This document shows positions 170 through 15,622 of a DNA stretch of 64,000 nt, piece after piece (position 1 is the stretch's first letter; every line of letters begins with the position of its first letter). The position numbers and the translations under genes are program-made. The stretch comes from a virus. Location of the stretch: the IMG/VR virus record IMGVR_UViG_3300045988_177154, positions 96,001 to 160,000 of that record; one strand, given 5' to 3'. The notes under the pieces are model-generated. The model saw nothing but the letters and a program-made list of their open reading frames with translations. It was not told where the DNA came from and did no database searches.

Positions 170-277
170 ATGAATGAATTATTACTTGAAGAATTACTAG
201 AACAATTAGAAAATAAAGGAATTGATATATCCAAGTTAAATATTCAAGAAATAACTGATGAAGATGATTTCTTTTAA
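170..277 (+). CDS. small acidic hypothetical protein (35 aa, MNELLLEELLEQLENKGIDISKLNIQEITDEDDFF)
   Basis: ATG 170 preceded by aaaagg. Open to TAA 275-277. Lies between the two tRNA-Glu genes. Below the ORF-track cutoff. Confidence 0.3.
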   Translation: MNELLLEELLEQLENKGIDISKLNIQEITDEDDFF

Positions 278-286
278 TAAAATTTA

Positions 287-358
287 ACACCGTTCGTCTA
301 GCGGTTAGGACGCTGCCCTTTCACGGCGGAAACACGGGTTCGAGTCCCGTACGGTGTA
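287..358 (+). tRNA. tRNA-Glu(UUC) copy 2
   Basis: Acceptor acaccgt/acggtgt; D-arm gtc-tagcggttag-gac; anticodon arm ctgcc-ctTTCac-ggcgg; T-arm acggg-ttcgagt-cccgt; discriminator A358. No CCA. Confidence 0.85.
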
Positions 359-690
359 TTGGCATTTAGTAGGAGTTGTAAATGACTTCTATGATAAGGA
401 AAGGGTCAAACTAAGCACGTGAATGATTGTTTGAGGCTCGGTAAAATAATGGATTTAAAATTCCAGTTGCAAATGGAAATTTAAAAAAGTTATTGCGCTA
501 AATGGTGAGTTTAAATCTCCCAATGCCTGTTATTTAAGATAAGATTTATCTTATCCTAAATATAAAAATGACAGTTAAGACATTTTAAATACCTATATGG
601 GTAATCTTGATATAAAATTTAACGAGTCACAAAGAATAAATACGATTTGATTGGCTTGCAAATCATTACAATTTAGGAGTTATTTTATTT

Positions 691-1590
691 ATGAATAAAA
701 TTAAATTATTAAGTGTTTTAACTTTATCTACCGTAGTTTTGGGTGCCTGTTCTTTGTTACCTAAATCAACAGAAAATAAAACTGAAACAACTGAACAAGT
801 AACAACTACTAGTAAAGAAGATTCAGTTAAAGAGAAAGTCACAAAGGATGCTACAGTTCTTTTAGATTCTGTCTTAACTACAGATAATGCTAAATTTAAG
901 AAAGTTTATGGGGAAACCTATGACAAATGGACTGATGCAATTATTGCCGTTCAAACTAGTGAAAAAATTAAGGAAGATGGTCTTACTCCAGCTTCTGAAT
1001 ATTCTGTACAATGGGTAAAAGATTTTCCAATTGAAACACCAGAAGAAACAATTTCTAACTTCCTTAAAGTAAGACGAAATCTCTTTCAGAAAATTGTAAA
1101 TTACAATATTAAAGATGTTGTAATTGATGATTCGGGAAATACTGCAACTGTTACATTTACATCTAAGAAGTTACATTCTCTTGGTTTAGCCTCATCAGTA
1201 AGAACAGTTCTAACTGAACTAATTGGGGGAATTGATAACCTCGGTAAATATAACCAAGCAGGTTCTTCTGAAACCGTTAAACGTTATCAAAACTTACTTT
1301 CTTATTGGATTTTCCGTCACTTATACAAACATGACTTTGCCATTTACTCTAATGTTGATGCTAACTTATCTCATGTTCCATTTACAAAAGGTGAATTTGA
1401 CACTGAGATTAAACTCACAAAGGATAAAGATGGCAATTGGGTGATTTCTCAAGATGATTATAAGACTTTGCTATCAGAATTGGTAGATAGAACTGAAGGC
1501 TATGATACAATAGACCGTTCAGGACTTCCTAATAAGAAAGCAACTGACTCATCTGAAACATCTACAGACAAAGATAAATCAAAAATTTAA
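691..1590 (+). CDS. putative lipoprotein
   Basis: 299-aa ORF with aggag upstream. Signal peptide with lipobox LGAC (MNKIKLLSVLTLSTVVLGAC-S). No catalytic motif recognised. Confidence 0.8.
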   Translation: MNKIKLLSVLTLSTVVLGACSLLPKSTENKTETTEQVTTTSKEDSVKEKVTKDATVLLDSVLTTDNAKFKKVYGETYDKWTDAIIAVQTSEKIKEDGLTPASEYSVQWVKDFPIETPEETISNFLKVRRNLFQKIVNYNIKDVVIDDSGNTATVTFTSKKLHSLGLASSVRTVLTELIGGIDNLGKYNQAGSSETVKRYQNLLSYWIFRHLYKHDFAIYSNVDANLSHVPFTKGEFDTEIKLTKDKDGNWVISQDDYKTLLSELVDRTEGYDTIDRSGLPNKKATDSSETSTDKDKSKI

Positions 1591-1641
1591 TTTAAAAATT
1601 ATAGAGAGTAGAACATCTTAAAAGATGTTTCCTCTCACTTT

Positions 1642-1730
1642 GGAGCGGTACCCAAGTGGCTAAAAGGGGGCGGTCTTGAAAACCGTTAGGTCGTTAATTC
1701 GGCGCGTGGGTTCGAATCCCACCCGCTCCG
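1642..1730 (+). tRNA. tRNA-Ser(UGA)
   Basis: Acceptor ggagcgg/ccgctcc; anticodon loop ctTGAaa; long variable arm; T-arm gtggg-ttcgaat-cccac; discriminator G1730. No CCA. Confidence 0.9.
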
Positions 1731-2577
1731 TTATATAGGAAGCTTGTAGTTGTCTGTGACCATCAAGCACAAACCGGCGTTACTCAAAAGGGAACGTTTG
1801 TAGTAATGTGAAAAGCATTACGATAGGTTTGGTACTATAATTAAATATAAATCCAAAAGTGCATTTTTCCGTTGGTTTGATGCCTGGCGTTATACAGTTC
1901 GCTTGCAGGTGTAAGAATGAACGAATGATTCAGAAAATAACTTGTTATTGGACGGAATCATCACGTTGGGAATTGAAAACTTAGTCGTGATGCTATAGTA
2001 ATATAGCTATAAAACGGATATGAATGGCTGGTTCGCTAAAGACTAGAATAGGAAATCTAAACAGTCCTTACGGTTGTGTGGTAACAGTCCACACCAATTC
2101 ATAAAGGTTATTGTCGGCCAACAATAATCGAATTGTCGCATAATAAATCTTGACTATATTAAGTTGTAGGTGGTGTCCTACTTTATGGCGGAATAAGTTC
2201 ATCGGCTTAACGCATGATAGCATGACATTCAAAAGATGTTCTGAGAGGCGATTGCTTCAAAGTGTTATCAGTACTTATATAGGTAGAGATTAGTGCAAGT
2301 CTAGGATTCTAATACAGAGAACGAATTGCATATGAGTGTAATTCCAAGCTCAAGTGTTGAATGAGGTTGATGTCATGAAAGTGACTATAAGAATTTGCTA
2401 GACAAACGCTGTAAGAAATCCTCACGCAGTAAAAGATATGGTATCTTTGATGATAAAGATATTAAATTTACTGACCAAGATGTGGTGAACCTTTGGGGTA
2501 TCAATCCTCACTTCGTGACTGAATATGGACGTTTAATTGTAGTTGTCAGTAAAAACTAAATCTGGCCCTATATTTTA
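1731..2577 (+). ncRNA. large ORF-free structured RNA candidate A (GOLLD/ROOL-class ornate RNA or novel)
   Basis: 847 nt exactly filling the gap between tRNA-Ser and tRNA-Thr. No ORF of 60 aa or more on either strand. Visibly more G+C than flanks. GNRA-capped hairpins at 1992-2007 (gtaa) and 2372-2385 (gaaa); other helices at 1803-1821, 2076-2094, 2108-2127 and 2166-2181. The ends can pair (1733-1739 atatagg with 2567-2573 cctatat). Confidence 0.5.
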
Positions 2578-2650
2578 GCTGGAGTAGCTCAATTGGTAGA
2601 GCACCCGCCTTGTAAGCGGAAGGTTGCAGGTTCGAAGCCTGTCTCCAGCA
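2578..2650 (+). tRNA. tRNA-Thr(UGU)
   Basis: Acceptor gctggag/ctccagc; D-arm gctc-aattggta-gagc; anticodon loop ctTGTaa; T-arm gcagg-ttcgaag-cctgt; discriminator A. No CCA. Confidence 0.8.
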
Positions 2651-3060
2651 TACTCTATAATAGATGTAATTATAAGAGTTCCTGAAAAATCAATGACTCA
2701 TGTAGGTTGTCATGAATTTACATGAATAGATTTCAATGTTGGTTTATCTGTAATCCGAAGCATGAATAAAACAGATTGTGGTCTTTGCTTTACCATATTA
2801 TTGTAAAGGTCAAAGCTTATCAGAAGTAATTCTGTAAAAAGTTGTTTCGATTGGAATTAGTGACTCCAATCTTTATCCATGAAATAACAAAAAATCATAA
2901 CTATTAAAGTTATGTGGCAGTTACGTTAGAGTATTGCTTGAAGTGTTGAAAATTAGAAGTTAGTGCCGAATTTCTAATCGTACTTCATTGATAGGGTTTT
3001 CGGTGGACACCGCGGGGCATAAGAAAACCGGCCAGTGAAATAAATGGTGTAATTAAAGAA
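2651..3060 (+). ncRNA. ORF-free structured RNA candidate B
   Basis: About 410 nt after tRNA-Thr with no ORF. Hairpins at 2652-2680, 2849-2871 and 2896-2914. Helix ggttttc/gaaaacc (2995-3029) encloses ggtggacaccgcgggg. The 3' boundary is uncertain; an AT-rich tract and a promoter follow. Confidence 0.4.
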
Positions 3061-3125
3061 ATTCTAAGATATGGCTTATAATTTCAAAAATTACTTAAAT
3101 TTTTTAAAAAATTTTAATTTTGATA

Positions 3126-3153
3126 TTGACAATAACTCAAATTTTGATATAAT
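3126..3153 (+). promoter_or_regulatory. sigma-A type promoter inside the tRNA island
   Basis: TTGACA 3126-3131, 16-nt spacer, TG-extended TATAAT 3148-3153 (ttTGaTATAAT). AT-rich UP-like tract upstream. Confidence 0.7.
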
Positions 3154-3287
3154 AGATACATAAAAACTTATAGGTTCTTAGTTTACCGAGAAAAATAAGG
3201 GTCTCCAAAACCTTAGAAATCAGTGCAAGTCTGATAGAGCCTGTTACAAATAAAAATTATTAAAAGAAAAAAGGAAGGTACGTAATC

Positions 3288-3410
3288 ATGACAACATTTA
3301 CAGTCGCACAAGATATTCATATGATTATTGATATGCAGCCGGCAGCCGGTACTGTAGTGCTTCGTCAAGCAAAAAATACCTTACAATCTAATAGTAGGAT
3401 TATAAGTTAG
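3288..3410 (+). CDS. small ORF / possible leader peptide (40 aa, MTTFTVAQDIHMIIDMQPAAGTVVLRQAKNTLQSNSRIIS)
   Basis: RBS aaggaagg 7-8 nt before ATG 3288; stop TAG 3408-3410. Its 3' part contains a copy of the downstream terminator arm. Confidence 0.35.
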   Translation: MTTFTVAQDIHMIIDMQPAAGTVVLRQAKNTLQSNSRIIS

Positions 3411-3438
3411 CATTCAGCTCAGCTTAATAAATCAAACT

Positions 3439-3470
3439 AAGATTGTAAGAAATTCCTTACAATCTTTTTC
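3439..3470 (+). terminator. intrinsic terminator / attenuator upstream of tRNA-Ala
   Basis: 11-bp stem aagattgtaag (3439-3449) / cttacaatctt (3456-3466), followed by a T-run. Arm sequence ccttacaatct is duplicated at 3379-3389, which allows an alternative pairing. Confidence 0.65.
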
Positions 3471-3479
3471 TAGCTATAT

Positions 3480-3550
3480 GGGGCATTAGTTTAATGGGAA
3501 AACACTACCCTTGCAAGGTAACGTTAGGAGTTCGATTCTCCTATGCTCCA
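3480..3550 (+). tRNA. tRNA-Ala(UGC)
   Basis: Acceptor ggggcat/atgctcc with G3:U70 (Ala identity pair); anticodon loop ctTGCaa; T-arm aggag-ttcgatt-ctcct; discriminator A. No CCA. Confidence 0.9.
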
Positions 3551-3575
3551 TTTCCATTAAGGAAATCATCATTAA

Positions 3576-3646
3576 GTGGACATAGTATAAGGGTAGTATG
3601 ACGGGCTTCCAACCCGTTGGTGCGAGTTCGAATCTCGTTGTCCATA
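3576..3646 (+). tRNA. tRNA-Gly(UCC)
   Basis: Acceptor gtggaca/tgtccat; anticodon arm acggg-ctTCCaa-cccgt; T-arm gcgag-ttcgaat-ctcgt. No CCA. Confidence 0.85.
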
Positions 3647-3649
3647 TAA

Positions 3650-3720
3650 GGCGAGGTAGTGAAAAGGTATAACGTTGGGCTCATAACCCAAAATTGTCGG
3701 TTCGAATCCGACCTTCGCAA
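3650..3720 (+). tRNA. tRNA-Met(CAU); initiator-like features, Ile2 not excluded
   Basis: Anticodon arm ttggg-ctCATaa-cccaa, with three G:C pairs next to the loop. 1:72 is a G.A mismatch (ggcgagg/cttcgca). T-arm gtcgg-ttcgaat-ccgac. U11:A24 is elongator-like, so the subtype is ambiguous. Confidence 0.8.
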
Positions 3721-3730
3721 TTTTAAATTA

Positions 3731-3804
3731 CTAGGTGTAGCGCAGTTTGGTAGCGCACGTGCTTTGGGAGCACGGGGCCGCAGGTTCGAATCCTGTCACC
3801 TAGA
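3731..3804 (+). tRNA. tRNA-Pro(UGG)
   Basis: Acceptor ctaggtg/cacctag with C1:G72; D-arm gcgc-agtttggta-gcgc; anticodon arm cgtgc-ttTGGga-gcacg; discriminator A. No CCA. Confidence 0.9.
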
Positions 3805-3845
3805 TAAAGCAATGATGAATTGCTTAAAGGAAAGGTTTTTATATT

Positions 3846-4025
3846 ATGACTAATTTGAAAAAATATATCTTATCTTTGATTATAGCATTTGTAATTACCA
3901 TTCCTATTGCAAGTGTTATTCTTACAATTATTTATGATACAGTAATCTTCTTGATTATCTCAACAATTATTTATTTTATTGTAATGACTTTAGTTATTAA
4001 AGGATTTAATTATGATAAAGATTAG
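3846..4025 (+). CDS. small hydrophobic membrane protein (59 aa, two predicted TM helices)
   Basis: RBS aaaggaaagg upstream of ATG 3846; stop TAG 4023-4025 abuts tRNA-Ile. Sequence MTNLKKYILSLIIAFVITIPIASVILTIIYDTVIFLIISTIIYFIVMTLVIKGFNYDKD. Confidence 0.5.
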   Translation: MTNLKKYILSLIIAFVITIPIASVILTIIYDTVIFLIISTIIYFIVMTLVIKGFNYDKD

Positions 4026-4096
4026 TGTCCGATGGTGAAATGGTATCACAAGCTGCTGATAACGGCTAGTTACAAGTTCAATTCTTGTTCGGACAA
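4026..4096 (+). tRNA. tRNA-Ile(GAU)
   Basis: Acceptor tgtccga/tcggaca fully paired; D-arm gtga-aatggta-tcac; anticodon loop ctGATaa; T-arm acaag-ttcaatt-cttgt. No CCA. Confidence 0.9.
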
Positions 4097-4107
4097 TACA
4101 ATATAAA

Positions 4108-4179
4108 TGCTTCTTAGTTTAATGGATATGACGCCGGACTACGAATCCGGAGATAAAGGTTCAATTCCTTTAGGAGCAA
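4108..4179 (+). tRNA. tRNA-Arg(ACG)
   Basis: Acceptor tgcttct/aggagca; anticodon arm ccgga-ctACGaa-tccgg; T-arm aaagg-ttcaatt-ccttt. No CCA. Confidence 0.85.
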
Positions 4180-4184
4180 TATAT

Positions 4185-4258
4185 TGGAGTATAGACAAAT
4201 TGGTAAAGTCACTGGACTTTGAATCCAGGTTTTGCTGGTTCGAATCCAGCTACTCCAG
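4185..4258 (+). tRNA. tRNA-Gln(UUG)
   Basis: Acceptor tggagta/tactcca with U1:A72; discriminator G; anticodon arm ctgga-ctTTGaa-tccag; T-arm gctgg-ttcgaat-ccagc. No CCA. Confidence 0.9.
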
Positions 4259-4270
4259 TTAATAAAATAT

Positions 4271-4343
4271 GGCTTCGTAGCAAAGTGGTTATTGCGCTGG
4301 CTTGTCACGCCAGAGGTCGGGGGTTCGATTCCCCTCGGGGCCG
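4271..4343 (+). tRNA. tRNA-Asp(GUC)
   Basis: Acceptor ggcttcg/cggggcc; anticodon arm ctggc-ttGTCac-gccag; T-arm ggggg-ttcgatt-cccct; discriminator G. No CCA. Confidence 0.9.
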
Positions 4344-4755
4344 TAACCCTGCCTAGGGGTAATACATAGTAGTAATACTATGAAAGGAAGTTTGACAAAC
4401 TTTCGCCTGTCTTATGATGGGTTAACTAGGCAATACATTTTCAAGTTGCTCAAAAGGCACATTATATAAGCATAATCAGTGAGAAACCTTGAGATAGTTT
4501 CAGGCATGGAATTGCTAACTTCTTGTGCTAGCTAATGGAAGTTAGATGTGCGAAATATAAGGAGAATGTAAGGATTAACAGTTAGAGTCTTAGCGGATAA
4601 TAGCGTAATCCATAACAATATTCATATGGTTGGCAAATCATTGTAAGTATTGTTGAATTTCAAAATCTTAGCGGATAGAGAAGTAATAAATTGGCGAGGA
4701 GCATTCCTTAGAACAAAATTTTATGGAACTCCGAGGCATAGCTCGTCAATGTCAA
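4344..4755 (+). ncRNA. ORF-free structured RNA candidate C
   Basis: 412 nt between tRNA-Asp and the tRNA-like gene, with no ORF. GNRA hairpin catagta-gtaa-tactatg (4365-4382). 8-bp helix ctaacttc/gaagttag (4515-4545). Internal 12-nt direct repeat tcttagcggata at 4588-4599 and 4666-4677. Confidence 0.4.
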
Positions 4756-4829
4756 AGGTGATTAGCTCATTTGGTAGAGCATATATTTTGAGGAATATAG
4801 GGTAATGGGTTCGATTCCCATATTACTAA
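4756..4829 (+). tRNA. non-canonical tRNA-like gene with 8-nt anticodon loop (identity undetermined)
   Basis: Canonical D-arm gctc-atttggta-gagc and T-arm atggg-ttcgatt-cccat; 5-nt variable loop. Acceptor aggtgat/attacta is weak (A1.A72 plus two G.U). Anticodon stem tatat/atata encloses the 8-nt loop tttgagga (4787-4794). Confidence 0.5.
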
Positions 4830-5179
4830 CGAAGCGAAAGTCTATGTCAGACTTAGAAAAAAAGAGCATTAACTCCATACAGATTTATTCTGAATATGGA
4901 AACAATAGAAGCTCGCAAGCAACTATTGTTTTAATCCAATGATTTCCGCAAACTTGAGCCGTACAACTTAGGTCTAACGAAATCGGGTTGAGTATCGCTA
5001 AGTCTTAATGGTAAAAGTATCGCCAGCAGGTTTGTAACTGCGAAAGATGAATGCTTAAGAGATACGATTAGGAATAATCGTGGATAAACAACTAAACAAT
5101 AAGGTTGTTAAAGACTCTTATTTAACGCTATAATCTCAGGCCGTTAACTTCTTATAGGGGAAGAGAAATCCTATTTTAT
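4830..5179 (+). ncRNA. ORF-free structured RNA candidate D
   Basis: 350 nt before tRNA-Val with no ORF. Helices tccata/tatgga (4874-4900) and aacaatag/ctattgtt (4901-4930, around a gcaa loop). GNRA hairpin acgatta-ggaa-taatcgt (5064-5081). Confidence 0.4.
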
Positions 5180-5251
5180 GCTCTGTTAGCTCAGGGGGAG
5201 AGCACTAGTCTTACAAACTAGATGTCATTGGTTCAAATCCAATACAGAGCA
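5180..5251 (+). tRNA. tRNA-Val(UAC)
   Basis: Acceptor gctctgt/acagagc; D-arm gctc-aggggga-gagc; anticodon arm ctagt-ctTACaa-actag; T-arm attgg-ttcaaat-ccaat. No CCA. Confidence 0.9.
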
Positions 5252-5306
5252 TTTCCTACATAAAACGCAAAATCGTTTATTGTAGTGCTTACGATGTAAG
5301 CATCTA

Positions 5307-5389
5307 GCGCCCGTGGTGGAATGGCAGACACGCTAGGCTTAGACCCTAGTGTCCGAAAGGACGTGAGAGTTCGAGTCTCTCCGAGTGCA
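5307..5389 (+). tRNA. tRNA-Leu(UAG)
   Basis: Anticodon arm ctagg-ctTAGac-cctag; long variable arm gtcc-gaaa-ggac; T-arm gagag-ttcgagt-ctctc; discriminator A. One C.A mismatch in the acceptor stem. No CCA. Confidence 0.85.
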
Positions 5390-5390
5390 T

Positions 5391-5464
5391 CTTGTCTTAG
5401 TGTTAATAGGTTAGCATATCTCACTGTGACTGAGAAGGTACGGGTTCGAGTCCCGTAGGCATGA
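5391..5464 (+). tRNA. tRNA-His(GUG) without encoded G-1, discriminator A73
   Basis: Anticodon arm tctca-ctGTGac-tgaga; T-arm acggg-ttcgagt-cccgt; acceptor cttgtct/aggcatg with a U2.U71 mismatch. Position -1 is T5390 (it could pair with A5464) and directly follows the tRNA-Leu discriminator. No CCA. Confidence 0.75.
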
Positions 5465-5471
5465 TTAGGAA

Positions 5472-5651: not shown

Positions 5652-5680
5652 TTGACTAGTTATATTATTTGTTATATAAT
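5652..5680 (+). promoter_or_regulatory. sigma-A type promoter
   Basis: TTGACT 5652-5657, 17-nt spacer, TATAAT 5675-5680. Confidence 0.7.
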
Positions 5681-5714: not shown

Positions 5715-6221
5715 ATGGAAAATTCAATCCTAGAAAAAGAAGATAAGTATATTAAAGATGGCTATAAACAAATCTATCCAAATGATAAAGATATTAAAGT
5801 TACTCTATTGAATGGGGTTTCAGATTGGATATGGATTTGTAGCTCTTTTCAAACCAGAAAATTATCATTAAGAGAAGCTTTCAAAAATAAGGGTAGCAAA
5901 TTTCTTGATGTTGAAGCTGATTATGAAGGCAATTCACATATTCAATTACGATTAACCAAAAACTCTCAAAAACAGATTTATAGTATTTCGGATATTTTTA
6001 TAACTAGTGATGATGAAAAGTTAATTCGCTTAACAGAAAAAACAGCTGAAGATTATGAGGGTTTTGTTCAAAAGATTGATAAAATATATTTCGATATAAA
6101 CGAAGGTCGATTACTTATTTTTCTTGATAAGAATTTTGTAAGTAAAAAAGGAGCGAAAGCTATTGCTAAGAAAGCAAAAGAAGATGAAGTCAAAAAATCA
6201 ATCTCTGAGTTATTTGAATAA
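5715..6221 (+). CDS. hypothetical protein, tandem paralog family A member 1 of 9
   Basis: 168-aa ORF. Family motifs: N-terminal DGYKQIYPN, KIDKIYF, LIFLDKNFVSKK, K/E-rich linker, C-terminal SISELFE. Confidence 0.8.
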   Translation: MENSILEKEDKYIKDGYKQIYPNDKDIKVTLLNGVSDWIWICSSFQTRKLSLREAFKNKGSKFLDVEADYEGNSHIQLRLTKNSQKQIYSISDIFITSDDEKLIRLTEKTAEDYEGFVQKIDKIYFDINEGRLLIFLDKNFVSKKGAKAIAKKAKEDEVKKSISELFE

Positions 6222-6242
6222 AAATAGAAAGACAAATAAGAA

Positions 6243-6746
6243 ATGGAAAATGCAATACTTATAGAAGATAAACAAATAGAAAAGGGCTTTAAACAAATAT
6301 ACCCAAATAACAATGATGTGGAAATAAGTCTGAAATCGTGGCGTGATGGTTGGCCTTGGATTAGCAAAGGTTGGGAAACTAGAAGATTAACTATTTATGA
6401 AAACATTAAGGAATGGAATAAAAATTTTTTTAAAGTTGATGTTGATTATACAGATGATTACAGTGTCAAGTTGTATCTCACTAAATCTTTTCGAACTAAA
6501 ACTTATGGAGTAGATAAGATTTATATAAAAAATGGTGATGATGAGCCCCTGTGTTTAACTAAAGTAAATTCAAAAGATTACAAAATCATAGCAAAGAAAA
6601 TAGATAAAATATATTTCAATATAAATGAACATAGTTTACTTATTCTTACTGATAAGAATTTTATCAGCAAAAAAGAGAAAAAACTCTTAAAAGAAAAATC
6701 AATAACGGAAGCCGCTAACAATTCAATTGAAGAATTATTCAACTAA
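6243..6746 (+). CDS. hypothetical protein, family A member 2
   Basis: 167 aa. Motifs KGFKQIYPN, KIDKIYF, LILTDKNFISKKEKK, C-terminal SIEELFN. Clearly alignable to 5715..6221. Confidence 0.8.
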   Translation: MENAILIEDKQIEKGFKQIYPNNNDVEISLKSWRDGWPWISKGWETRRLTIYENIKEWNKNFFKVDVDYTDDYSVKLYLTKSFRTKTYGVDKIYIKNGDDEPLCLTKVNSKDYKIIAKKIDKIYFNINEHSLLILTDKNFISKKEKKLLKEKSITEAANNSIEELFN

Positions 6747-6775
6747 AGAAAGCTTAAAACTTTCTTTTTTATTTT
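6745..6775 (+). terminator. intrinsic terminator
   Basis: aaagaaag-cttaaaa-ctttcttt plus a T-run. Confidence 0.75.
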
Positions 6776-6785
6776 TATTTTGTTG

Positions 6786-6814
6786 TTGACAAAGGGTAAA
6801 ATCTATTGTATAAT
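6786..6814 (+). promoter_or_regulatory. sigma-A type promoter
   Basis: TTGACA 6786-6791, 17-nt spacer, TATAAT 6809-6814. Confidence 0.75.
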
Positions 6815-6846
6815 AAATTTAGAAATTAAGGAAAAGGTGATAAACA

Positions 6847-7992
6847 ATGAAATTAACAATAAAAGAAACAAAGAAAGCAATCAAAAATAATCAAACTGTT
6901 AAATTTACTCTTGAGCTTAATAATGCAAGAGAACTTGCAACTAATAAGAAATATTACAAACGCTATGTAAAAGCAGTTGTGAAAAGAGTTAAATCTTTTT
7001 ATCCAACATTGGACTCATCTTATATTTTATCTGAATTAGAACGTTATGAAATCTTACCAAACGTTTCACGATTTGATGAAGAAGGTTACTTAATTCGCTA
7101 TGGTAAACAAAGATACGTTACAGCACAAACGTTTGAAGTGAATGATAATAAAATCTATTGGGTTGATTTTGATTACAATGCCAATTACTTCATCGTAGAC
7201 CAAGAATTAGGAATGAAATTAGATTCTGATGTTGCTGTATCTGATTCATTCTCAAATCACTTTGCAATATTAGTAAGCGACCCAAGCAGATTATTTCATG
7301 TTACAGATGAAGAATTACCATTATTCTTAAAATTATCAAAGACAGCACAAGGTTCTTTCAATATTGCAGTTGATGAAAATGTTTTTGCTGGAACAAAATC
7401 TAAACTTGTAAATCTTGATAAACAAAAAATTACTCGTAAAGCATATGAAGAAGAATTAAAAAATATTAGAACTAAAATTGTTGAAGTAAATAGAGTAATC
7501 TCCCCTATTTATGAAGAATTGACTACAAAATTCAATGATAAAGTAATCAAATCACAAAAAGTTGTTTCTAGTAAAATTGTTCGTGATTCATTCCGTGAAG
7601 TAAGTCAAAAATTCAATGAATTTATTGCTAAGAAATTAGGTTTACGTTGCGATTATAATTCTATTGCATTAAGTTCTGAAATTCGTTGGCCACAAGAAGG
7701 TGAATACGGTGGAGCATTATATCGTGAATATGATGGTACAATGTGTGTTCAACCAGATTTAGCAGACCGATACATTGAAAAGAATTACTCTAAAGAAATT
7801 AAAGCAATTAAAACTGAAATTGAAAAATTAAACAAGAAATTGGGCTCAAAATCACCAATTCAATTTGAAATTGGTTACGGTGTTTCTGTCGGTGATAAAA
7901 CTTCTAACATTTATGCAGCTATTTCATTAAAGAAATTGCCAGAAACAATTGTCGCTAAATACTTCAACAAAATGGAAAATCTATTTAAATAA
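6847..7992 (+). CDS. hypothetical protein (381 aa)
   Basis: Long ORF with RBS aaggaaaaggtg upstream. No recognisable motif. Has its own promoter and terminator. Confidence 0.8.
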   Translation: MKLTIKETKKAIKNNQTVKFTLELNNARELATNKKYYKRYVKAVVKRVKSFYPTLDSSYILSELERYEILPNVSRFDEEGYLIRYGKQRYVTAQTFEVNDNKIYWVDFDYNANYFIVDQELGMKLDSDVAVSDSFSNHFAILVSDPSRLFHVTDEELPLFLKLSKTAQGSFNIAVDENVFAGTKSKLVNLDKQKITRKAYEEELKNIRTKIVEVNRVISPIYEELTTKFNDKVIKSQKVVSSKIVRDSFREVSQKFNEFIAKKLGLRCDYNSIALSSEIRWPQEGEYGGALYREYDGTMCVQPDLADRYIEKNYSKEIKAIKTEIEKLNKKLGSKSPIQFEIGYGVSVGDKTSNIYAAISLKKLPETIVAKYFNKMENLFK

Positions 7993-8002
7993 AATAAAGA
8001 TT

Positions 8003-8033
8003 AAGAAAGTCAATTTTTGACTTTCTTATTTTT
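8003..8033 (+). terminator. intrinsic terminator
   Basis: aagaaagtca-attttt-tgactttctt plus a T-run. Confidence 0.8.
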
Positions 8034-8034
8034 G

Positions 8035-8063
8035 TTGATTTTTTGTGAATTTTATTATATAAT
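8035..8063 (+). promoter_or_regulatory. sigma-A type promoter
   Basis: TTGATT 8035-8040, 17-nt spacer, TATAAT 8058-8063. Confidence 0.65.
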
Positions 8064-8093
8064 ATAACAAAACGATACTGAAAGGTTGAAACA

Positions 8094-8648
8094 ATGAACA
8101 CTATTGTAGAAAATAAAAGTAAATTAGATAAATTAGTACAAGATGGGTATAAAATTATTTATCCTAATTCTATTGATGGATTGGATTTTGAAGTTATTAC
8201 TGAAGAATGGTTTACAACAGCAGGTCTTATGGAAACTCATTATGTGATTGAAAAAAGTTTAAATTGTTCAGCATTAAGTTTATATGAAAAATTCTTCAAA
8301 TACAAAAATGATTTATTCCTTAATTTCAGCACTCTCATTACATCAAAATTTGGTGATTGTTCTGATAAGAAACATATATTAAGATTCGGAAAAAGTGATG
8401 CTAAAAAAGAGTTCAAAATACGAAAATTACTAATTGTTTCAGACAGTATGGAATTTAAACTTGGAGATTATCCAAAATTTCAAGAAAAGATTAACTTTAT
8501 TCTGTTCGACCCTAAAAATCTTTACTTAGTATTCTATATTGATGATAAATTCAAATCAAAGGAAGCTCAAAAAGAAGATTTAGAAAAGAATAAAAAACAA
8601 AATCTTGAAAATGAATTAGAAGAAGATTTGCAATCGCTATTTGATTAA
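8094..8648 (+). CDS. hypothetical protein, family A member 3
   Basis: 184 aa. Motifs DGYKIIYPN, KINFILF, YIDDKFKSKEAQK, C-terminal LQSLFD. Confidence 0.8.
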   Translation: MNTIVENKSKLDKLVQDGYKIIYPNSIDGLDFEVITEEWFTTAGLMETHYVIEKSLNCSALSLYEKFFKYKNDLFLNFSTLITSKFGDCSDKKHILRFGKSDAKKEFKIRKLLIVSDSMEFKLGDYPKFQEKINFILFDPKNLYLVFYIDDKFKSKEAQKEDLEKNKKQNLENELEEDLQSLFD

Positions 8649-8752
8649 CACTCCAGCTCTAAGCTGTTTTGTTAAATGAATGATAAATGCTATTAAAAAC
8701 GATGTGAACTGACTTAGAGTTGCTTAGACTGTAATGTAGTATCACTTAAAAT
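8649..8752 (-). repeat. dispersed intergenic repeat, copy 1 (degenerate)
   Basis: Starts ctaagctgtttt and ends cttaaaatgaaag, like copy 2. The central palindromes are decayed. Confidence 0.5.
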
Positions 8753-8771
8753 GAAAGGAACAAATAAAACT

Positions 8772-9278
8772 ATGAATCATATTGTAGAAGAAGAAAAGAA
8801 AGATATTTTAGCGCCTCATATTGAAGATGGATATAAAGTTATCTATCCTAATAAAAACGTAAAAATTGAATTAGTAAATATTTATAAAAAACGGGCTTCT
8901 CAGCATATTAAAATTGGGTTAATTTGTTCAGGCCTGAAGTTATGGGATAGACTTTCTACTTATAAAAAAGATTTATTCTTGAAGCCGGGTAACTTTGAAA
9001 AGGGGGAGAATAAATTAACAATTAGTAGAGATGGAGCAGAAGCTACATTTAATTTAGAAAGAAATATTTTTATTTATGATTTAAATAATAAATATTTTGG
9101 CTCAGAAGCAAAGTTCCCCGAAAAGATTGAATATATTTTACTTAAGCAAAATTTCAACACAACTCATTTGCGAATTATAATAGATGATAAGTTTAAAACA
9201 AAAGCTGCTCAAAAACATTACCGAATCCAAAATGAAAAGAGAAAACTTGAAGAAGAATTAGACTTGAACCTAAGTTAG
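8772..9278 (+). CDS. hypothetical protein, family A member 4
   Basis: Start moved to ATG 8772 (MNHIVEEE; aaagga upstream), because ATG 8751 lies inside the repeat and has no RBS. Motifs DGYKVIYPN and IIIDDKFKTKAAQK. Confidence 0.75.
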   Translation: MNHIVEEEKKDILAPHIEDGYKVIYPNKNVKIELVNIYKKRASQHIKIGLICSGLKLWDRLSTYKKDLFLKPGNFEKGENKLTISRDGAEATFNLERNIFIYDLNNKYFGSEAKFPEKIEYILLKQNFNTTHLRIIIDDKFKTKAAQKHYRIQNEKRKLEEELDLNLS

Positions 9279-9388
9279 TATAAGCGTTTCTAAACTGTTT
9301 TTTCGTAAAGTCGATACATTTATCGAAAATCAGTTTTAACAGTTTTAGAATTGCTTATATGACGATATAATAACCCTTAAAATGAAAG
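9279..9388 (-). repeat. dispersed intergenic repeat, copy 2
   Basis: Its reverse complement matches copies 3, 7 and 9. It contains tcgatacatttatcga and ttatatgacgatataa. Confidence 0.8.
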
Positions 9389-9403
9389 TGAGTAATTGTA
9401 AAA

Positions 9404-9898
9404 ATGAATGAAATTGTTTCAGTGAAAGATGAAAATAATTTAGATGAAAATTATAAATTAGTTTATCCTAATAATAAAGGATTAGCAGTAAGACTGTATG
9501 AAAGCAACACATCTTTATTAACTCATTCATCTGACAGTTGTTTTTTGAGTTTTTTTGAAGTTTTGTTTAATATAAATGATTTGTTTATTGAAAAAACAAA
9601 GTATCAAAAAATCGTGTCTGAGTATAGGCCATGGTTTAGATTGGTATTTACATCTTTTAAAAATGACTCCTTTAAAGATGAGTACAATATTAAGAATGTA
9701 AAAGTTCTAAATGAACAACATAAATCAATAGAAATAAAATATCCCAAGAAAATTAAAGAGATTTATTTTAGTACAGAAAATAATACAGTTGCTATTGTTA
9801 TTGACTCTAATTTCTGTTCTAAGCATGAGAAAAAGCAGACAGCTGAATTGAAAGAAAAAGAAAATCTTTCAAATAGTGTTAAAGATTTATTGAATTAG
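9404..9898 (+). CDS. hypothetical protein, family A member 5
   Basis: 164 aa. Motifs ENYKLVYPN, KIKEIYF, IVIDSNFCSKHEKK, C-terminal SVKDLLN. Confidence 0.8.
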   Translation: MNEIVSVKDENNLDENYKLVYPNNKGLAVRLYESNTSLLTHSSDSCFLSFFEVLFNINDLFIEKTKYQKIVSEYRPWFRLVFTSFKNDSFKDEYNIKNVKVLNEQHKSIEIKYPKKIKEIYFSTENNTVAIVIDSNFCSKHEKKQTAELKEKENLSNSVKDLLN

Positions 9899-9910
9899 AA
9901 AGGTACACAA

Positions 9911-10447
9911 ATGAATGAAATAGTTTCAATAAAAAATAAAAATTTTTTAGATGGGTATAAGCTCGTTTATCCCACCAACAACAAAGATTTAAAAGTTAAT
10001 ATTTTAGATGATAATGGTGATGGGCAACTTCATATCGGGATAAGTAATCTTGATTTAAACATGCTTGAAGAGGTGCTTTATTTCAACAAATTGTTTATTA
10101 GTAAATATAGCAAATTGATTTTGGAGAACCATATAGAAAATTTTAGCTCTGGAGTTACATTATTGTTTACTTCAAAAGAGGGTAAAGAAATAAAAGGCTT
10201 TGCAATAAAATCTTTGAAAATAACAGATTCTCACGGGGAGAAAGTTGATTTTACTCATCTTGAGTTAATTAAAGAAATTTATTTTAATGCAGATACTGGA
10301 GCTGTTATTATTGTTACAGATGAAAAATTCTGCTCTGCTAAAGAGAAGAAATACATCAAAGAGCAGAAAGTAAAAAATCATGAAAAAGCAATAAAAGAAC
10401 AGAAAGAGAAAGCATTATTAAATAGTGTTGAAAATTTATTGAATTAG
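9911..10447 (+). CDS. hypothetical protein, family A member 6
   Basis: 178 aa. Motifs DGYKLVYPT, IKEIYF, IIVTDEKFCSAKEKK, C-terminal SVENLLN. Confidence 0.8.
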   Translation: MNEIVSIKNKNFLDGYKLVYPTNNKDLKVNILDDNGDGQLHIGISNLDLNMLEEVLYFNKLFISKYSKLILENHIENFSSGVTLLFTSKEGKEIKGFAIKSLKITDSHGEKVDFTHLELIKEIYFNADTGAVIIVTDEKFCSAKEKKYIKEQKVKNHEKAIKEQKEKALLNSVENLLN

Positions 10448-10459
10448 AAAGGCTCAAAA

Positions 10460-10987
10460 ATGAATGAAATTGTTTCAACAAATAATGAATTACAAGATTA
10501 TAAGTTAATTTATCCTAATGATAAAAAGTTAAGAGTTAATCTTTCAGATGGATTAACAAGTGCTAGTCTTAAATTTGGAAGTGAAACTGATAAACTGAAC
10601 TTTTTTGAAAGATTTCTTAACTTTAACAATTTGTTCATTTCTAAATATGATTATCAAGCTTTTATGAAAGCTCCTGAGTTTAATACTAGGGCTTTGTCTT
10701 TGCGTTTCCTTTCAAATGAGGGCGAACTTGTGAGAATTTTCAGATTATCTCATATAAAAATAGTAAATTCTCAATATGAAGAAGTGCCAATTTCTCATAT
10801 TAAACAAATAAAAGAAATTTACTTTAGTGATGAGCTTGGCTCTGTTATTATTGTTATAGATGAAAATTTCTGCTCAATGCGTGAGAGAAAAGATTTAAGA
10901 GATGAAATGAAAGCAAAAAATGAATTACTTGCCAAAGAGACTAGACAAGAAACTCTATTAAAAGAAGTAAATGATTTGTTGAATTAG
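10460..10987 (+). CDS. hypothetical protein, family A member 7
   Basis: 175 aa. Motifs QDYKLIYPN, IKEIYF, IIVIDENFCSMRERK, C-terminal VNDLLN. Confidence 0.8.
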   Translation: MNEIVSTNNELQDYKLIYPNDKKLRVNLSDGLTSASLKFGSETDKLNFFERFLNFNNLFISKYDYQAFMKAPEFNTRALSLRFLSNEGELVRIFRLSHIKIVNSQYEEVPISHIKQIKEIYFSDELGSVIIVIDENFCSMRERKDLRDEMKAKNELLAKETRQETLLKEVNDLLN

Positions 10988-11003
10988 AAAGGATTGAATC
11001 AAG

Positions 11004-11510
11004 ATGAATGAACTTGTTTCAAATGACTATAAAGAGGATTTGCTCAAAGACAATTACAAACTGATTTATCCAAATGATTTGGGCTTGATTGTAACTATGA
11101 ACAAAGGTGATACTAAAATTATTTTCAAAAGAGGATTTGACAAAAAGTTAGGACTGTTGGGCGCGTTTGAAAATAGTAATAAACTATTTGTTTCTTACCA
11201 CATTTTTGATACAGCTAGACGATTAAACTCAAATTCTCATGAAAAATTAACATTAGAGTTTAAAGAGCTTAACAAATCAGAAATTAAAGAAATTCCTATT
11301 GTAAATATTAAAATTCTTGATGAACAAGGTGAGGAGTATTTAAATAACACATGGAGTAGACGAATTAAGAAAATCTATTTGAATACTGAAAAAGCTGCTC
11401 TTATAATTGTAATTGATGAAAGTTTTCAATTCCCAGAGCAATTAAAAGAACTTAAATTAAAGCAAAAAGCAGAAAAATTAGAGAATAAAATCAACTCATT
11501 GTTAAAATAA
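11004..11510 (+). CDS. hypothetical protein, family A member 8
   Basis: 168 aa. Motifs DNYKLIYPN, IKKIYL, IIVIDESF, C-terminal INSLLK. Confidence 0.8.
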   Translation: MNELVSNDYKEDLLKDNYKLIYPNDLGLIVTMNKGDTKIIFKRGFDKKLGLLGAFENSNKLFVSYHIFDTARRLNSNSHEKLTLEFKELNKSEIKEIPIVNIKILDEQGEEYLNNTWSRRIKKIYLNTEKAALIIVIDESFQFPEQLKELKLKQKAEKLENKINSLLK

Positions 11511-11524
11511 AAGGAGAGAACTAT

Positions 11525-11827
11525 ATGCTATTCAAATTGAAAGATACAGAAGTAAATGAAATTACACCAATTTATAAAGATGAACACTATGAAGAAGGCT
11601 GGTGTGAAACTTGTGGTGGCGAATGGGTAGATGCTGAAATTGAAATCGAAATTGTTTTTGGTGATTCAACTTCATATATTTATAGAAACAATAACAATGC
11701 TGAAATTAAATCAATTACTACAGTTATTAACTATCTATTTACACATTTAAACGAATTTCCTAACATGACGAAAGATGAGTTTATTAGCCATCTTAAGCAC
11801 CAGCTTGATGAAGATTTCAAAGATTAG
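11525..11827 (+). CDS. small acidic hypothetical protein (100 aa)
   Basis: RBS aaggagag upstream. D/E-rich, with a single CETCGG motif. Inserted between family A members 8 and 9. Confidence 0.7.
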   Translation: MLFKLKDTEVNEITPIYKDEHYEEGWCETCGGEWVDAEIEIEIVFGDSTSYIYRNNNNAEIKSITTVINYLFTHLNEFPNMTKDEFISHLKHQLDEDFKD

Positions 11828-11839
11828 AAAGAGTAAAAA

Positions 11840-12331
11840 ATGAATAACATTACTCAAAATTTCAAAGAAAATTTATTAGCTAATAACTATAAATTGATTT
11901 ATCCTAACTCTAAAAAAATAGAGATTAGGATATTTGCTAAAAAACTCTTTAGCTTAACCAAAAAAGCACAAGATATAGAACAATTGACTCCAATTCAAAA
12001 AATTCTTTATTGGGGCCAATTGTTTTTGAATGAAGAAAGATACAAATTCATAAGAGAATTAAAGAAAGATGAGCTTTTGATTAAATTTTTTAATAAAACT
12101 GGTATTGAAGAAAAATTTATCTTTTCAACTGTTAAGATTTATGATGAAAATGGCTCTCCATATTACTCATTATATCCTAAGAAAATTAAAGAAATTTATT
12201 TGAATTTTAGCTCAAAAAGTGTTATAATTGTCATAGATGAAAGATTCAAGACTAAAAAAGAAAAAGCTTGGATTAAAAAAGAAAAAAAGAAAGGAAACTT
12301 TACAAAGAATTTAGAATCTTTGATAAGTTAA
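11840..12331 (+). CDS. hypothetical protein, family A member 9
   Basis: 163 aa. Motifs NNYKLIYPN, KIKEIYL, IIVIDERFKTKKEK, C-terminal LESLIS. Confidence 0.8.
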   Translation: MNNITQNFKENLLANNYKLIYPNSKKIEIRIFAKKLFSLTKKAQDIEQLTPIQKILYWGQLFLNEERYKFIRELKKDELLIKFFNKTGIEEKFIFSTVKIYDENGSPYYSLYPKKIKEIYLNFSSKSVIIVIDERFKTKKEKAWIKKEKKKGNFTKNLESLIS

Positions 12332-13632: not shown

Positions 13633-14382
13633 ATGAATTATTTAAGTATATGTCAAGAATTAGACAAAGTGAAGAATAGCATCAAGTATCATGAAAGAGA
13701 AATTGAAAAAGATAAATCTAAAGTTGAACAACTAGAAGAATACAAGAAGTTGCTTGAAAATGGTGCTAAACCAGTTTATGTTGAAGCTAAAGAGTTTGTT
13801 AAACCTGTAAATCCTATATTTATTCTCCTTAAAAGCAAATTGTACTTTGAAGAATTAAAGAACGTTTTGTTGTACGATTACAAATCATTAGAGAAAAATC
13901 CAGTAACACTTATCCAAGATGAATGGCATGCTTTCAAGCTTAAGTGGCATTCAACATATACTCGCTCTGATGAAAGTAAAGTTACTTTTCATAAGGATTT
14001 GACAGAGGATTATTACTCAGAATTACTTTTGGAACTAAATAAAATAGATGATTTAAATATTGAAAGAACAGCACAAAGTCTTTCTATAATTCAAAACGGT
14101 CAATTTCCAACTCGTAAACATTCTGGTCAATTTGATTATGGAGTATTAAAGGATATTGTTAGTTTTAAAGTGGAAAAATTTGAAAAAGTTTTACAACTAC
14201 TTAACTTCCCAAAAGAAATAGAAATTTCTCTAGGACGAGTGCTGTATGTTCTTAATGAAGATACTAAGGAATATGAATTACAATTTTTAAACTTGAAAGA
14301 TGAGTTGCCAATAAAGGGGGATTTATGTGGTGATAACAACATTAAAAAACAATGGCCAAATAAAATTTTTACTGAAGATTGA
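13633..14382 (+). CDS. hypothetical protein, paralog family B member 1
   Basis: 249 aa. Alignable to 14867..15622 through an N-terminal coiled-coil (EKxKxEQLEEYKK / KAKLQEEYEK) and the LLNFPKEIEI / LLNFPEQIVI motif. Confidence 0.75.
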   Translation: MNYLSICQELDKVKNSIKYHEREIEKDKSKVEQLEEYKKLLENGAKPVYVEAKEFVKPVNPIFILLKSKLYFEELKNVLLYDYKSLEKNPVTLIQDEWHAFKLKWHSTYTRSDESKVTFHKDLTEDYYSELLLELNKIDDLNIERTAQSLSIIQNGQFPTRKHSGQFDYGVLKDIVSFKVEKFEKVLQLLNFPKEIEISLGRVLYVLNEDTKEYELQFLNLKDELPIKGDLCGDNNIKKQWPNKIFTED

Positions 14383-14788
14383 TGAAGAAAATGACTTGCT
14401 TACAAATAGTTGGGTTGATGAAAGTTTTGAATATCTAGCTAGGGCCGCAAACAAAAAAGATACAGATAGAGATTTAATCTTAACTATCCGAAAAGGATTA
14501 GGACAATTAGAGTACAATATTAAAAAATTAACTTATGAATATAAGGGTCAAGGCAAAAATATTAAAGTTAAGGAATTAGAATTAAGTGATAACTCTAATA
14601 GCGAAACTGAATTAAAAGTCATTTTTGAAAGAAGCTTCGCTATACAAGAAAAGATTTATAACTATCTAAAAGCTCAAATAAACCATGCTCTAAAATCCTA
14701 TAAAGATAAGAGAGCAGAGCTAAAACGTTTTAATCAGCAAGAACTTGAAAATTTAATTAAAAATAACACAAAAGAAAAGAAAGATTAG
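14327..14788 (+). CDS. hypothetical protein
   Basis: GTG start 6 nt after aaaggggg. Overlaps the previous gene by 56 nt in another frame. K/E-rich coiled-coil. Confidence 0.55.
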   Translation: MVITTLKNNGQIKFLLKIDEENDLLTNSWVDESFEYLARAANKKDTDRDLILTIRKGLGQLEYNIKKLTYEYKGQGKNIKVKELELSDNSNSETELKVIFERSFAIQEKIYNYLKAQINHALKSYKDKRAELKRFNQQELENLIKNNTKEKKD

Positions 14789-14866: not shown

Positions 14867-15622
14867 ATGAAAAACTATATGGATATTGTAAATTTAGAAA
14901 ATGAGTTGCTTAATAAAAAAGCTAAACTACAAGAAGAATATGAAAAAGAAATGAATGCTATCAATAAAAGATTAGCTGAATATGAAGATTATAAAAATGA
15001 TTTCAAGAATGGAAATGCTGAATTAGTTTTAGCTAAGGAATATGTTGAGCAATATAGACGATTTAACATTTTACTTTACTTTGCTCTTTATATGAATGAC
15101 TTGAAGAAAGTGCTAAAAGAAGATTGGAAAGTACTTCTTGAAAAGAATTTACAATTGCAAGATAATGCTTATGGTGGAGATTGGACTAAATATACTCTAC
15201 TTGTTCAAAAAGGTTATGGAACAAATTATCACCCTAATTTAGGTTCAATTGAATTTTCAAAAAATACACCGTCTGAATATTTTGATACTCTTTATATGGA
15301 GCTAGAAGATAAAGTGATTAAAAATTTAGAAACTGTTAAAGGTAGTGAATATAATTACGCCAATCGGTTCCCTAACAATGACCCGTTCACTTATTTCAAA
15401 TGGTTAGATTATAAATTTGCTTTTAAACTTAAAACAGATGATTATGACTATACTAAATTATTTAAATTGCTTAACTTTCCAGAGCAAATTGTTATCCAAA
15501 ATGATGGACGTAAAGCTATGTATAAGCTAATTGATGATGTTTACGCTTTCCACACTTGGAATTGTGCTACTGAAGAATGGGTAAATGAATATGAAGAATA
15601 TTTGAAAATGAAAGGTAAATAA
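14867..15622 (+). CDS. hypothetical protein, paralog family B member 2
   Basis: 251 aa; RBS agaggga upstream. Paralog of 13633..14382. Confidence 0.8.
   Translation: MKNYMDIVNLENELLNKKAKLQEEYEKEMNAINKRLAEYEDYKNDFKNGNAELVLAKEYVEQYRRFNILLYFALYMNDLKKVLKEDWKVLLEKNLQLQDNAYGGDWTKYTLLVQKGYGTNYHPNLGSIEFSKNTPSEYFDTLYMELEDKVIKNLETVKGSEYNYANRFPNNDPFTYFKWLDYKFAFKLKTDDYDYTKLFKLLNFPEQIVIQNDGRKAMYKLIDDVYAFHTWNCATEEWVNEYEEYLKMKGK

Follow-up and report, generated by a model that had tools for sequence, protein, structure and literature searches.

Large viruses are known to carry multigene families in plastic regions of early genes. In the ankyrin/PRANC (F-box-like) families of poxviruses, many paralogs occupy a plastic region and are gained and lost by recombination. 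Among bacterial viruses, the T4 internal protein (IP) genes form a polymorphic set of small, divergent proteins near tRNA genes, whose complements differ between related phages, and in the host-takeover modules of SPO1- and Twort-like phages small early genes follow one another, each group having strong sigma-A-type promoters and terminators. Here we describe one case of this phenomenon, a tandem array of nine paralogous genes (family A) at positions 5715-12331 of a 64-kb stretch of viral DNA (positions 96,001 to 160,000 of the IMG/VR record IMGVR_UViG_3300045988_177154), called the window in this report. Large phages keep plastic regions of unnamed early genes, few of whose multigene families have been dissected, and family A offers a confidently modelled domain without a structural relative, together with a testable layout of body, stalk and ten-residue tip.

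Family A resembles the poxvirus families in its many paralogs, its plastic location and its recombinational gain and loss and, under the explanation we favour, also in joining a variable target-binding part to a conserved C-terminal docking element; the poxvirus proteins differ in belonging to eukaryotic viruses and in that their folds and partner (the SCF ligase) are known, whereas the fold of family A is unmatched. Like the T4 IP locus, it comprises a polymorphic group of small, divergent proteins that have an N-terminal peptide in common and are encoded near tRNA genes. However, a targeting peptide is all that the IPs share, whereas the members of family A have a fold and a C-terminal element in common, lack a conserved protease site and look to be expressed early. 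The SPO1 and Twort modules likewise group small early genes with sigma-A-type promoters and terminators, but encode mostly unrelated small proteins and not a nine-member paralog family. A fourth point of comparison is provided by SspB-type adaptors, in which a substrate-binding domain is followed by a linker and a C-terminal ClpX-binding peptide. Family A, as read from sequence and model, repeats this order of globular binder, spacer and extreme C-terminal docking peptide, but SspB has no sequence or fold similarity to it, is single-copy and has a flexible linker.

Family A is best explained as a lineage-restricted multigene family of soluble early proteins, and each protein as a chain of four parts: a disordered N-terminal peptide, a compact alpha/beta domain, a charged helix of 20-42 residues and an amphipathic tip. 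The nine open reading frames (ORFs), of 163-184 amino acids (aa), all lie on the + strand, begin where a preliminary description of this DNA had placed them, and are numbered here by their order along that strand. They are given below with their C-terminal heptads (tails) and with the expect value (E) at which a profile built without the member in question recovered it.

5715-6221, + strand: member 1, 168 aa, tail SISELFE, leave-one-out E 3.3e-33
6243-6746, + strand: member 2, 167 aa, tail SIEELFN, leave-one-out E 1.9e-27, 41% identical to member 1
8094-8648, + strand: member 3, 184 aa, tail DLQSLFD, leave-one-out E 1.1e-25
8772-9278, + strand: member 4, 168 aa, deviant tail ELDLNLS, leave-one-out E 2e-20
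9404-9898, + strand: member 5, 164 aa, tail SVKDLLN, leave-one-out E 1.7e-38
9911-10447, + strand: member 6, 178 aa, tail SVENLLN, helix longer by 11 residues, leave-one-out E 1.9e-34
10460-10987, + strand: member 7, 175 aa, tail EVNDLLN, modelled with AlphaFold2, leave-one-out E 2.8e-39
11004-11510, + strand: member 8, 168 aa, tail KINSLLK, leave-one-out E 2.3e-30
11840-12331, + strand: member 9, 163 aa, tail NLESLIS, leave-one-out E 1.1e-28

The ORF of member 4 opens at 8751, and both the alignment and the ribosome-binding site (RBS) favour the start at 8772. In a full-length alignment of the nine proteins, the invariant residues (M1, N3, K18, Y21, P22, N23, L50, F63, L78, I121, I124, D138 and F141 in the numbering of member 1) covered the (D/N)(G/N)YKxIYPN motif and both the KIKEIYF and IIVIDxxF strands. 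Searched against every six-frame ORF of the window, a profile of all nine recovered these nine and no others (E 1e-44 to 1e-57), the next best having an E of 0.6, and the leave-one-out profiles recovered each omitted member (E 2e-20 to 3e-39) and no window ORF from outside the family at E<=10. The alignment and both kinds of search thus bore out the preliminary description of nine homologous, head-to-tail ORFs with shared motifs and, as it had also claimed, the middle of the proteins was their least conserved part. Pairwise identities were 24-41%, a single short local match (50%) excepted. The closest pairs were neighbours (41% for members 1 and 2, 33% for members 3 and 4, 37-41% among members 5, 6 and 7), which is the pattern that local tandem duplication produces.

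AlphaFold2, run on member 7 with a 44-sequence alignment, gave a model with a predicted local distance difference test score (pLDDT) of 87 and a predicted template-modelling score (pTM) of 0.76. In this model residues 1-8 are disordered, residues 14-133 form the globular part, and residues 140-174 form a single helix of 35 residues. The globular part comprises a beta hairpin (strands 15-18 and 25-29) that bears the YKxIYPN motif, two short helices and six further strands, the last of which are KIKEIYF (115-123) and IIVID (128-133). The K/E-rich segment had been described as a flexible low-complexity linker. The model does not support this, as the helix (pLDDT 80-93) spans both the segment and the tail without a break, and it follows that the segment is probably a stiff charged stalk, not a flexible tether.

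When this model was searched with Foldseek, no match was found in the PDB (best E 0.85, template-modelling (TM) score <0.2, against a criterion of E<=0.001 or TM>=0.5). BFVD gave five matches up to E 0.0042, all to proteins from 'Siphoviridae sp. ctHip2', of which three had E<=0.001 and TM 0.58-0.79, and neither database yielded anything outside family A. The model and the BFVD family matches are consistent with the common fold that had been proposed. A 152-aa ctHip2 protein was a weak BFVD match to the family model (E 2e-3, TM 0.35); the window has a 152-aa gene of its own (14330-14788), whose product also has a beta-rich body, with ...ELENLIK... in a long C-terminal helix, and may be the same protein. 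Alignment with hhalign detected no relation between the family A profile and the neighbouring 381-aa, 249-aa and 152-aa genes. A membrane or secreted location was rejected, there being no transmembrane or other hydrophobic segment in any member, and so was a DNA mimic or a uniformly basic or acidic protein, since isoelectric points spread from 5.4 to 9.7.

Profile searches also upheld the earlier claim that these are orphans. No member matched Pfam-A above its cut-offs (best E 0.012), PHROGs gave no significant match (best E 0.0013, for a single member), scores against NCBIfam were far below the cut-offs, and neither PADLOC nor PDB sequence profiles (best E 0.63) contained a match. An exhaustive HMMER search of 1.84 billion representatives found only 63 family A clusters; two word-based searches found only proteins without Pfam domains from the same phage lineage, none of them fused or annotated, and a profile broadened to 32 sequences brought in no further lineage. 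Family A has been seen only on related metagenomic phage contigs, the long carriers being ~280-353 kb. UniRef lists under the name 'Siphoviridae sp. ctHip2' a protein identical to member 9, IMG/VR contained only two relatives, and cultured phages had no DNA similarity to the window, one tRNA excepted. Family A is thus new both as a protein family and, on the evidence of the model, as a predicted fold.

Conservation at the two ends of the protein was assessed over 29 clusters at <=70% identity, anchored at the C-terminus. Within the tip, hydrophobic residues occupied position -10 in 72% of the clusters, -6 in 93%, -3 in 86%, -2 in 93% and -1 in 0%, a spacing (i, i+4, i+7, i+8) that corresponds to one face of a helix, and the 15 residues ahead of the tip were almost purely K/E. 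The conserved last heptad reported in the preliminary description held for eight of the nine members, which end in hydrophobic-x-x-L-[FLI]-x, and failed for member 4 (ELDLNLS). The fraction of identical tail residues that used the same codon was 0.35, vs. ~0.5 elsewhere; as identical residues are encoded by differing codons, the tail is kept by selection on the protein. Gene conversion or homogenisation of the DNA was ruled out as the source of tail conservation on the same ground, that codons differ between paralogs. The first five residues, MN[EN]I[VI], were also conserved in these clusters, though predicted to be disordered. In members 5-8 the junction DNA was 87% identical over 70 nt and the same-codon fraction of the N-terminal codons was 0.68, and homogenisation or a constraint on translation initiation may contribute to the first ~10 codons of these members.

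The tail had previously been compared with the bacterial sliding-clamp motif QL[SD]LF. This comparison failed: Q was not among the four commonest residues at positions -11 to -1, as QL[SD]LF or QLxLxL would need, and the hydrophobic residues at -6, -3 and -2 are spaced i, i+3, i+4, whereas the clamp motif needs i, i+2, i+3. A partial resemblance exists to the T4 clamp-binding proteins (gp43, gp33, gp55 and ligase), which also carry an extreme C-terminal hydrophobic/acidic peptide behind a connector of variable length. T4 gp43 ends in ...ASLDFLFG and gp55 in ...SLDFLYEAND, and in family A the tail S-[IV]-x-[DE]-L-[FL]-x (compare SISELFE, DLQSLFD and SVKDLLN with SLDFLFG) matches gp43 at -7 (where four of the nine members have S), -6 (aliphatic), -3 (L), -2 (F or L) and -1 (a single trailing residue), without the F at -4. 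As the T4 motif is joined to unrelated proteins via connectors of variable length (PMC2988020, PMC7892883), the family A tip could similarly be a clamp-binding peptide that tethers these proteins to a phage or host clamp. We consider this quite unlikely, because the match amounts to three or four residues and could be due to chance, and because the T4 connector is unstructured, whereas that of family A is predicted to be a rigid charged helix continuous with the tail. Furthermore, the family A bodies are homologous paralogs (the comparison being made from sequence and a model alone), no clamp, polymerase or virion family was among the 25 listed of the 41 Pfam families matched by the 57 other ORFs of the window, and in these listed families no clamp, polymerase or ligase gene was seen.

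The length of the stalk, counted from the invariant F to the C-terminus, was 20, 27 (14 clusters), 31 (6 clusters), 38 (4 clusters) or 42 residues. The steps of 7 and 4 would roughly keep helical phase, but one distant member breaks the rule and the post-hoc p is ~0.05, so that the phasing is only suggestive. Such steps would be tolerated in helical bundles and, with the conservation of both termini across paralogs, are consistent with a second explanation, in which the stalk and tip, possibly with the N-terminal peptide, drive homo- or hetero-oligomerisation and the array encodes the subunits of one early complex that may include the products of two interposed genes, of 381 and 100 aa. Positions -11 to -18 of the stalk, however, are almost purely K/E and only 0-24% hydrophobic, which argues against a canonical coiled coil; that candidate was rejected because there is no continuous a/d heptad core and an a/d-like stripe is present only in the last 10 residues.

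Comparison of nine genomes showed that the array varies from five to nine members.

L001: 9 members; syntenic with the window, all array genes 100% identical
L002: 8 members
L095: 8 members
L099: 8 members; a further member apparently split (30-aa and 85-aa fragments) by a resolvase and TnpB element
L098: 7 members
L012: 6 members
L013: 6 members
L101: 5 members; the last fused to a VgrG3-like_C gene, and a several-kb deletion removes GreA and LytR
L009 (distant relative): 6 members, two without the tail

In most relatives a core set (types 1, 3, 4, 7, 8 and 9) recurs in the same order, with the 381-aa and 100-aa genes between. This constancy favours assembly of the paralogs into one complex, as do the presence of the same tip on the 381-aa protein, the purifying selection on all copies and the persistence in populations of chimeras that swap stalk and tip between paralogs. 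A copy number of 5-9, with one relative lacking type 9, part of type 8 and the 100-aa gene, is awkward for a fixed stoichiometry, and we regard a self-assembling set as possible but doubtful. If it were correct, the array would define a new early phage complex.

The variation in the array was of a particular kind. Compared with their best matches in L012 and L013, members 2-8 were 41-59% identical, with a synonymous divergence (dS) of 0.6-2.9, whereas GreA, LytR, a 320-aa gene and the 100-aa gene were 92-96% identical (dS 0.3-0.5); member 9 was the most conserved member (83-87%). L002 was 99-100% identical to the window from member 8 onward downstream, whereas its best matches to members 1-5 were 41-67% identical, which indicates a mosaic locus in which old allelic or paralog lineages have been exchanged and not mutated in place. 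Natural chimeras of paralogs (1+9, 5+9, 2+5, 4+5 and an in-frame 2~9 fusion) were found, several of them joined at or near conserved blocks. Ratios of nonsynonymous to synonymous divergence (dN/dS) among close orthologs were 0.18 in the N-terminus, 0.27 in the middle, 0.25 in the C-terminal strands, 0.21 in the stalk and 0.20 in the tail, indicating that every copy is functional. Positive selection was rejected at this resolution, since no region exceeded 0.3 and selection was purifying throughout. The rapid diversification claimed in the preliminary description therefore holds in that the array has been remodelled far faster than most of its neighbours, with changes in copy number, and does not hold in the sense of positive selection. 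The variation stems from old paralog lineages plus recombination, gain and loss.

Two mobile or fused elements were observed in related arrays. In L099 (11603-14512) a serine recombinase (resolvase) and TnpB element lies within the array, and the short ORFs of 30 and 85 aa on either side of it stand where a 177-aa member is found in relatives. In L101 (11128-12276) and L103 (3807-4955), a family member (profile positions 1-158) is fused in frame to VgrG3-like_C. The accompanying deletion removes member 9, the 100-aa gene, GreA and LytR, and this whole stretch must thus be dispensable in some genomes.

The context of the array suggested early expression, as had been proposed. Near-consensus sigma-70/sigma-A promoters (>=11/12 matches) numbered 17 on the + strand of the window, vs. 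3.7 +/- 2.1 in shuffled sequences; all but one had a 17-nt spacer, most lay some tens of nt ahead of a start codon, and one preceded member 1. Spacers of 12, 12 and 16 nt between members 5-8 agreed with the 10-16 nt claimed earlier, and spacers of 14 and 12 nt flank the interposed 100-aa gene. The remaining gaps, of 100-125 nt, contain promoter-like sites, terminator-like sites or a dispersed repeat, as the preliminary description had it, except that members 1 and 2 are only 21 nt apart. The elements in and around these gaps are as follows.

5652-5680, + strand: promoter-like TTGACT-17-TATAAT, 11/12 consensus, upstream of members 1-2
~6747-6775, + strand: hairpin and T-run, read by eye, preceding the promoter at 6786
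6786-6814, + strand: promoter-like TTGACA-17-TATAAT, 12/12 consensus, for the interposed 381-aa gene
8002-8028, + strand: terminator-like hairpin (12 pairs) and T-run, after the 381-aa gene
8035-8063, + strand: promoter-like TTGATT-17-TATAAT, 10/12 consensus, upstream of member 3
8649-8771, + strand: spacer between members 3 and 4; terminator-like hairpin at 8654-8666, followed by a degenerate copy of the dispersed repeat whose core, TAGAGTTGCTTA, is at 8715
9279-9403, + strand: spacer between members 4 and 5, one ~110-nt dispersed repeat that supplies TTTAGA-16-TATAAT (9344-9371) and the RBS of member 5

A search of the array spacers against Rfam found nothing. The promoter enrichment, together with the GreA that the phage encodes, makes it likely, as far as sequence can indicate, that the array is transcribed early by the host RNA polymerase. 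The whole 64 kb has the look of DNA transcribed by that enzyme.

Early expression bears on a third explanation, in which the N-terminal peptide would direct the proteins into the capsid, to be packaged there and injected with the DNA against host defences, as at the T4 IP locus. The array is a polymorphic set of varying copy number directly downstream of 17 tRNA genes (79-5465), its first five residues are conserved yet disordered, and the T4 IP genes behave similarly. However, its promoters are of host type in an early-region context, a whole fold and a C-terminal element are common to the family, not an N-terminal peptide alone, and the Pfam families listed for the window ORFs include no structural genes nearby. 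The T4 prohead-protease site is [LI]-x-E, and a candidate cleavage motif [IL][ILV]E occurs at residues 5-7 in four of the nine N-termini only, those of members 1-4. Packaging of these proteins therefore seems very improbable.

The explanation we favour, tentatively and at somewhat less than an even chance, is that family A is a panel of modular binders with a common docking or assembly tip, made early by the host RNA polymerase. The array would have grown by local tandem duplication and been reshuffled by recombination between conserved blocks, with each paralog lineage under purifying selection. From the variable body and the conserved base, stalk and tip we infer that the middle of the domain would set the target of each paralog, and that the conserved parts would link every paralog to the same partner, which could be a hub protein of the host or the phage, or else the other paralogs. 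Genes of host-interaction or counter-defence type (tRNA repair, ADP-ribose hydrolases and cell-wall enzymes) abound around the array. A narrower version, which we think unlikely, is that these are hub-docking adaptors with a new fold, each variable domain capturing a different host protein while the stalk and tip plug into one host machine (an unfoldase/protease, clamp or RNA polymerase). In that event the phage would redirect one host machine to many targets early in infection, family A would be the phage equivalent of the PRANC/F-box multigene families of poxviruses, and docking of the tip on a host hub would represent a new way of retargeting host machinery in Gram-positive bacteria and provide a portable docking peptide. 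Public metagenomes offer natural experiments on these proteins in the form of chimeras, tail-less copies and copy numbers of 5-9.

Several observations weigh against modular binders with a common tip. It is only from the architecture that a binder or adaptor logic would be read, and the AlphaFold2 model, being of a single chain, says nothing of the oligomeric state of the stalk. The variable middle, where a binder engaged in an arms race might show positive selection, gave no sign of it (dN/dS 0.27). The tail of member 4 drifts, being ELDLTFN or LAKELGI in relatives, and two of the six members in the distant relative L009 lack the tail. The member 9 orthologs P0074, P0075, P0077 and P0079 are 157 aa long and end in ...KKYKKKGVINSF in place of ...GDFTKNLESLIS; these variants, which end ...GVINSF, look like a tail-removing frameshift in an A-rich run, either real or an assembly error. 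P0075 was found on six contigs of up to 327 kb. The tail-less L009 copies and these variants indicate that not every copy needs the tip. Of 68 ORFs outside the array, 9 had the tail pattern, vs. 3.8 expected, which is no clear enrichment, several of the nine being non-independent paralogs, and only 2 had its strict form. A general signature of the proteins of this phage was thus not upheld under the strict pattern.

Two genes that are not members of the family interrupt the array.

6847-7992, + strand: interposed 381-aa gene, C-terminus YFNKMENLFK
11525-11827, + strand: interposed 100-aa gene with a single CxxC, no Pfam match

The 381-aa gene had no Pfam, PHROG or PDB-profile match and was unrelated to family A by hhalign. 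It has >500 homologs, all in this phage lineage, with a KMExLF[KN] tail in 116 of the 120 listed. Its C-terminus follows the family's hydrophobic pattern at -10, -6, -3 and -2, for which the chance probability is a few percent for a single protein, and we consider the tail pattern common to this protein and family A a lead. Its AlphaFold2 model was poor (pLDDT 58), with the tail in a low-confidence terminal helix (370-380), and Foldseek found nothing similar. No gene of the array is more conserved than the 100-aa CxxC gene, which is 92-100% identical in relatives and has a dN/dS of 0.06-0.09.

The dispersed intergenic repeat of ~110 nt was present elsewhere in the window. Its core TAG[AC]GTTGCTTA occurs 11 times, vs. 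2.0 +/- 1.3 expected, it contains an internal palindrome, TCGATAcattTATCGA, and it is found in both orientations: at 9279-9403 (+), 8649-8771 (+, degenerate), 17448 (-), 17513 (+), 35266 (-), 36384 (-), 46573 (-) and 63466 (-). Two copies form an inverted pair in the GreA-LytR interval. A miniature inverted-repeat transposable element (MITE)-like element, an operator and a promoter cassette are all possibilities for this repeat.

The window, whose G+C content is 26-36% (26-32% past the tRNA cluster), derives from an uncultured jumbo phage of ~280-350 kb seen in human-associated samples. One relative locus comes from an ENA record labelled 'HMPC12-1' (SAMN00032589), and a preprint on the oral phageome describes circular jumbo phages >300 kbp, all in tongue-dorsum samples (10.1101/2020.07.06.186817). 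GreA proteins of Lactobacillales (among them those of Enterococcus, Streptococcus, Abiotrophia and Aerococcaceae) share 46-58% identity with the phage GreA, and a more distant relative encodes a GbpC/LPXTG-anchor protein and a LytR-CpsA-Psr gene; this resemblance and these genes suggest that a Gram-positive host of the Lactobacillales is likely.

Besides GreA, the window encodes a glycyl-radical enzyme, an ADP-ribosylglycohydrolase, a NADAR protein, DHFR, TnpB, an RNA ligase, Thg1, a CCA-adding-type nucleotidyltransferase, a penicillin-binding protein and a signal peptidase. The RNA ligase (T4-like) lies at 21173-22351, the gene at 22344-22841 is probably NADAR, judging by synteny with L101, and the TnpB-type transposase is at 27623-28840; the Thg1, PolyA_pol, cREC_REC and ADP_ribosyl_GH hits were found in the window and are not placed on particular ORFs. 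Genes of tRNA-repair type, including a cyclic-phosphate-processing domain, thus lie with ADP-ribose-removing enzymes near a large tRNA cluster, an association that would fit counter-defence against anticodon nucleases and ADP-ribosylating toxins. Within that cluster, ARAGORN reported at 4756-4830 a tRNA whose anticodon has four bases (tgag) and to which no amino acid was assigned; this tRNA could be frameshift-suppressor-like, intron-bearing or an artefact.

All-against-all BLAST revealed four further tandem paralog families, and about one quarter of the window ORFs belong to such families.

13633-14382 and 14867-15622: paralog family found by all-against-all BLAST
47360-48715 and 49219-50562: paralog family, with the same ...EFLNS end on 46719-47345
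53455-56891: paralog family of four genes
57959-59051: paralog family of three genes

In several of these families, the members share hydrophobic C-termini.

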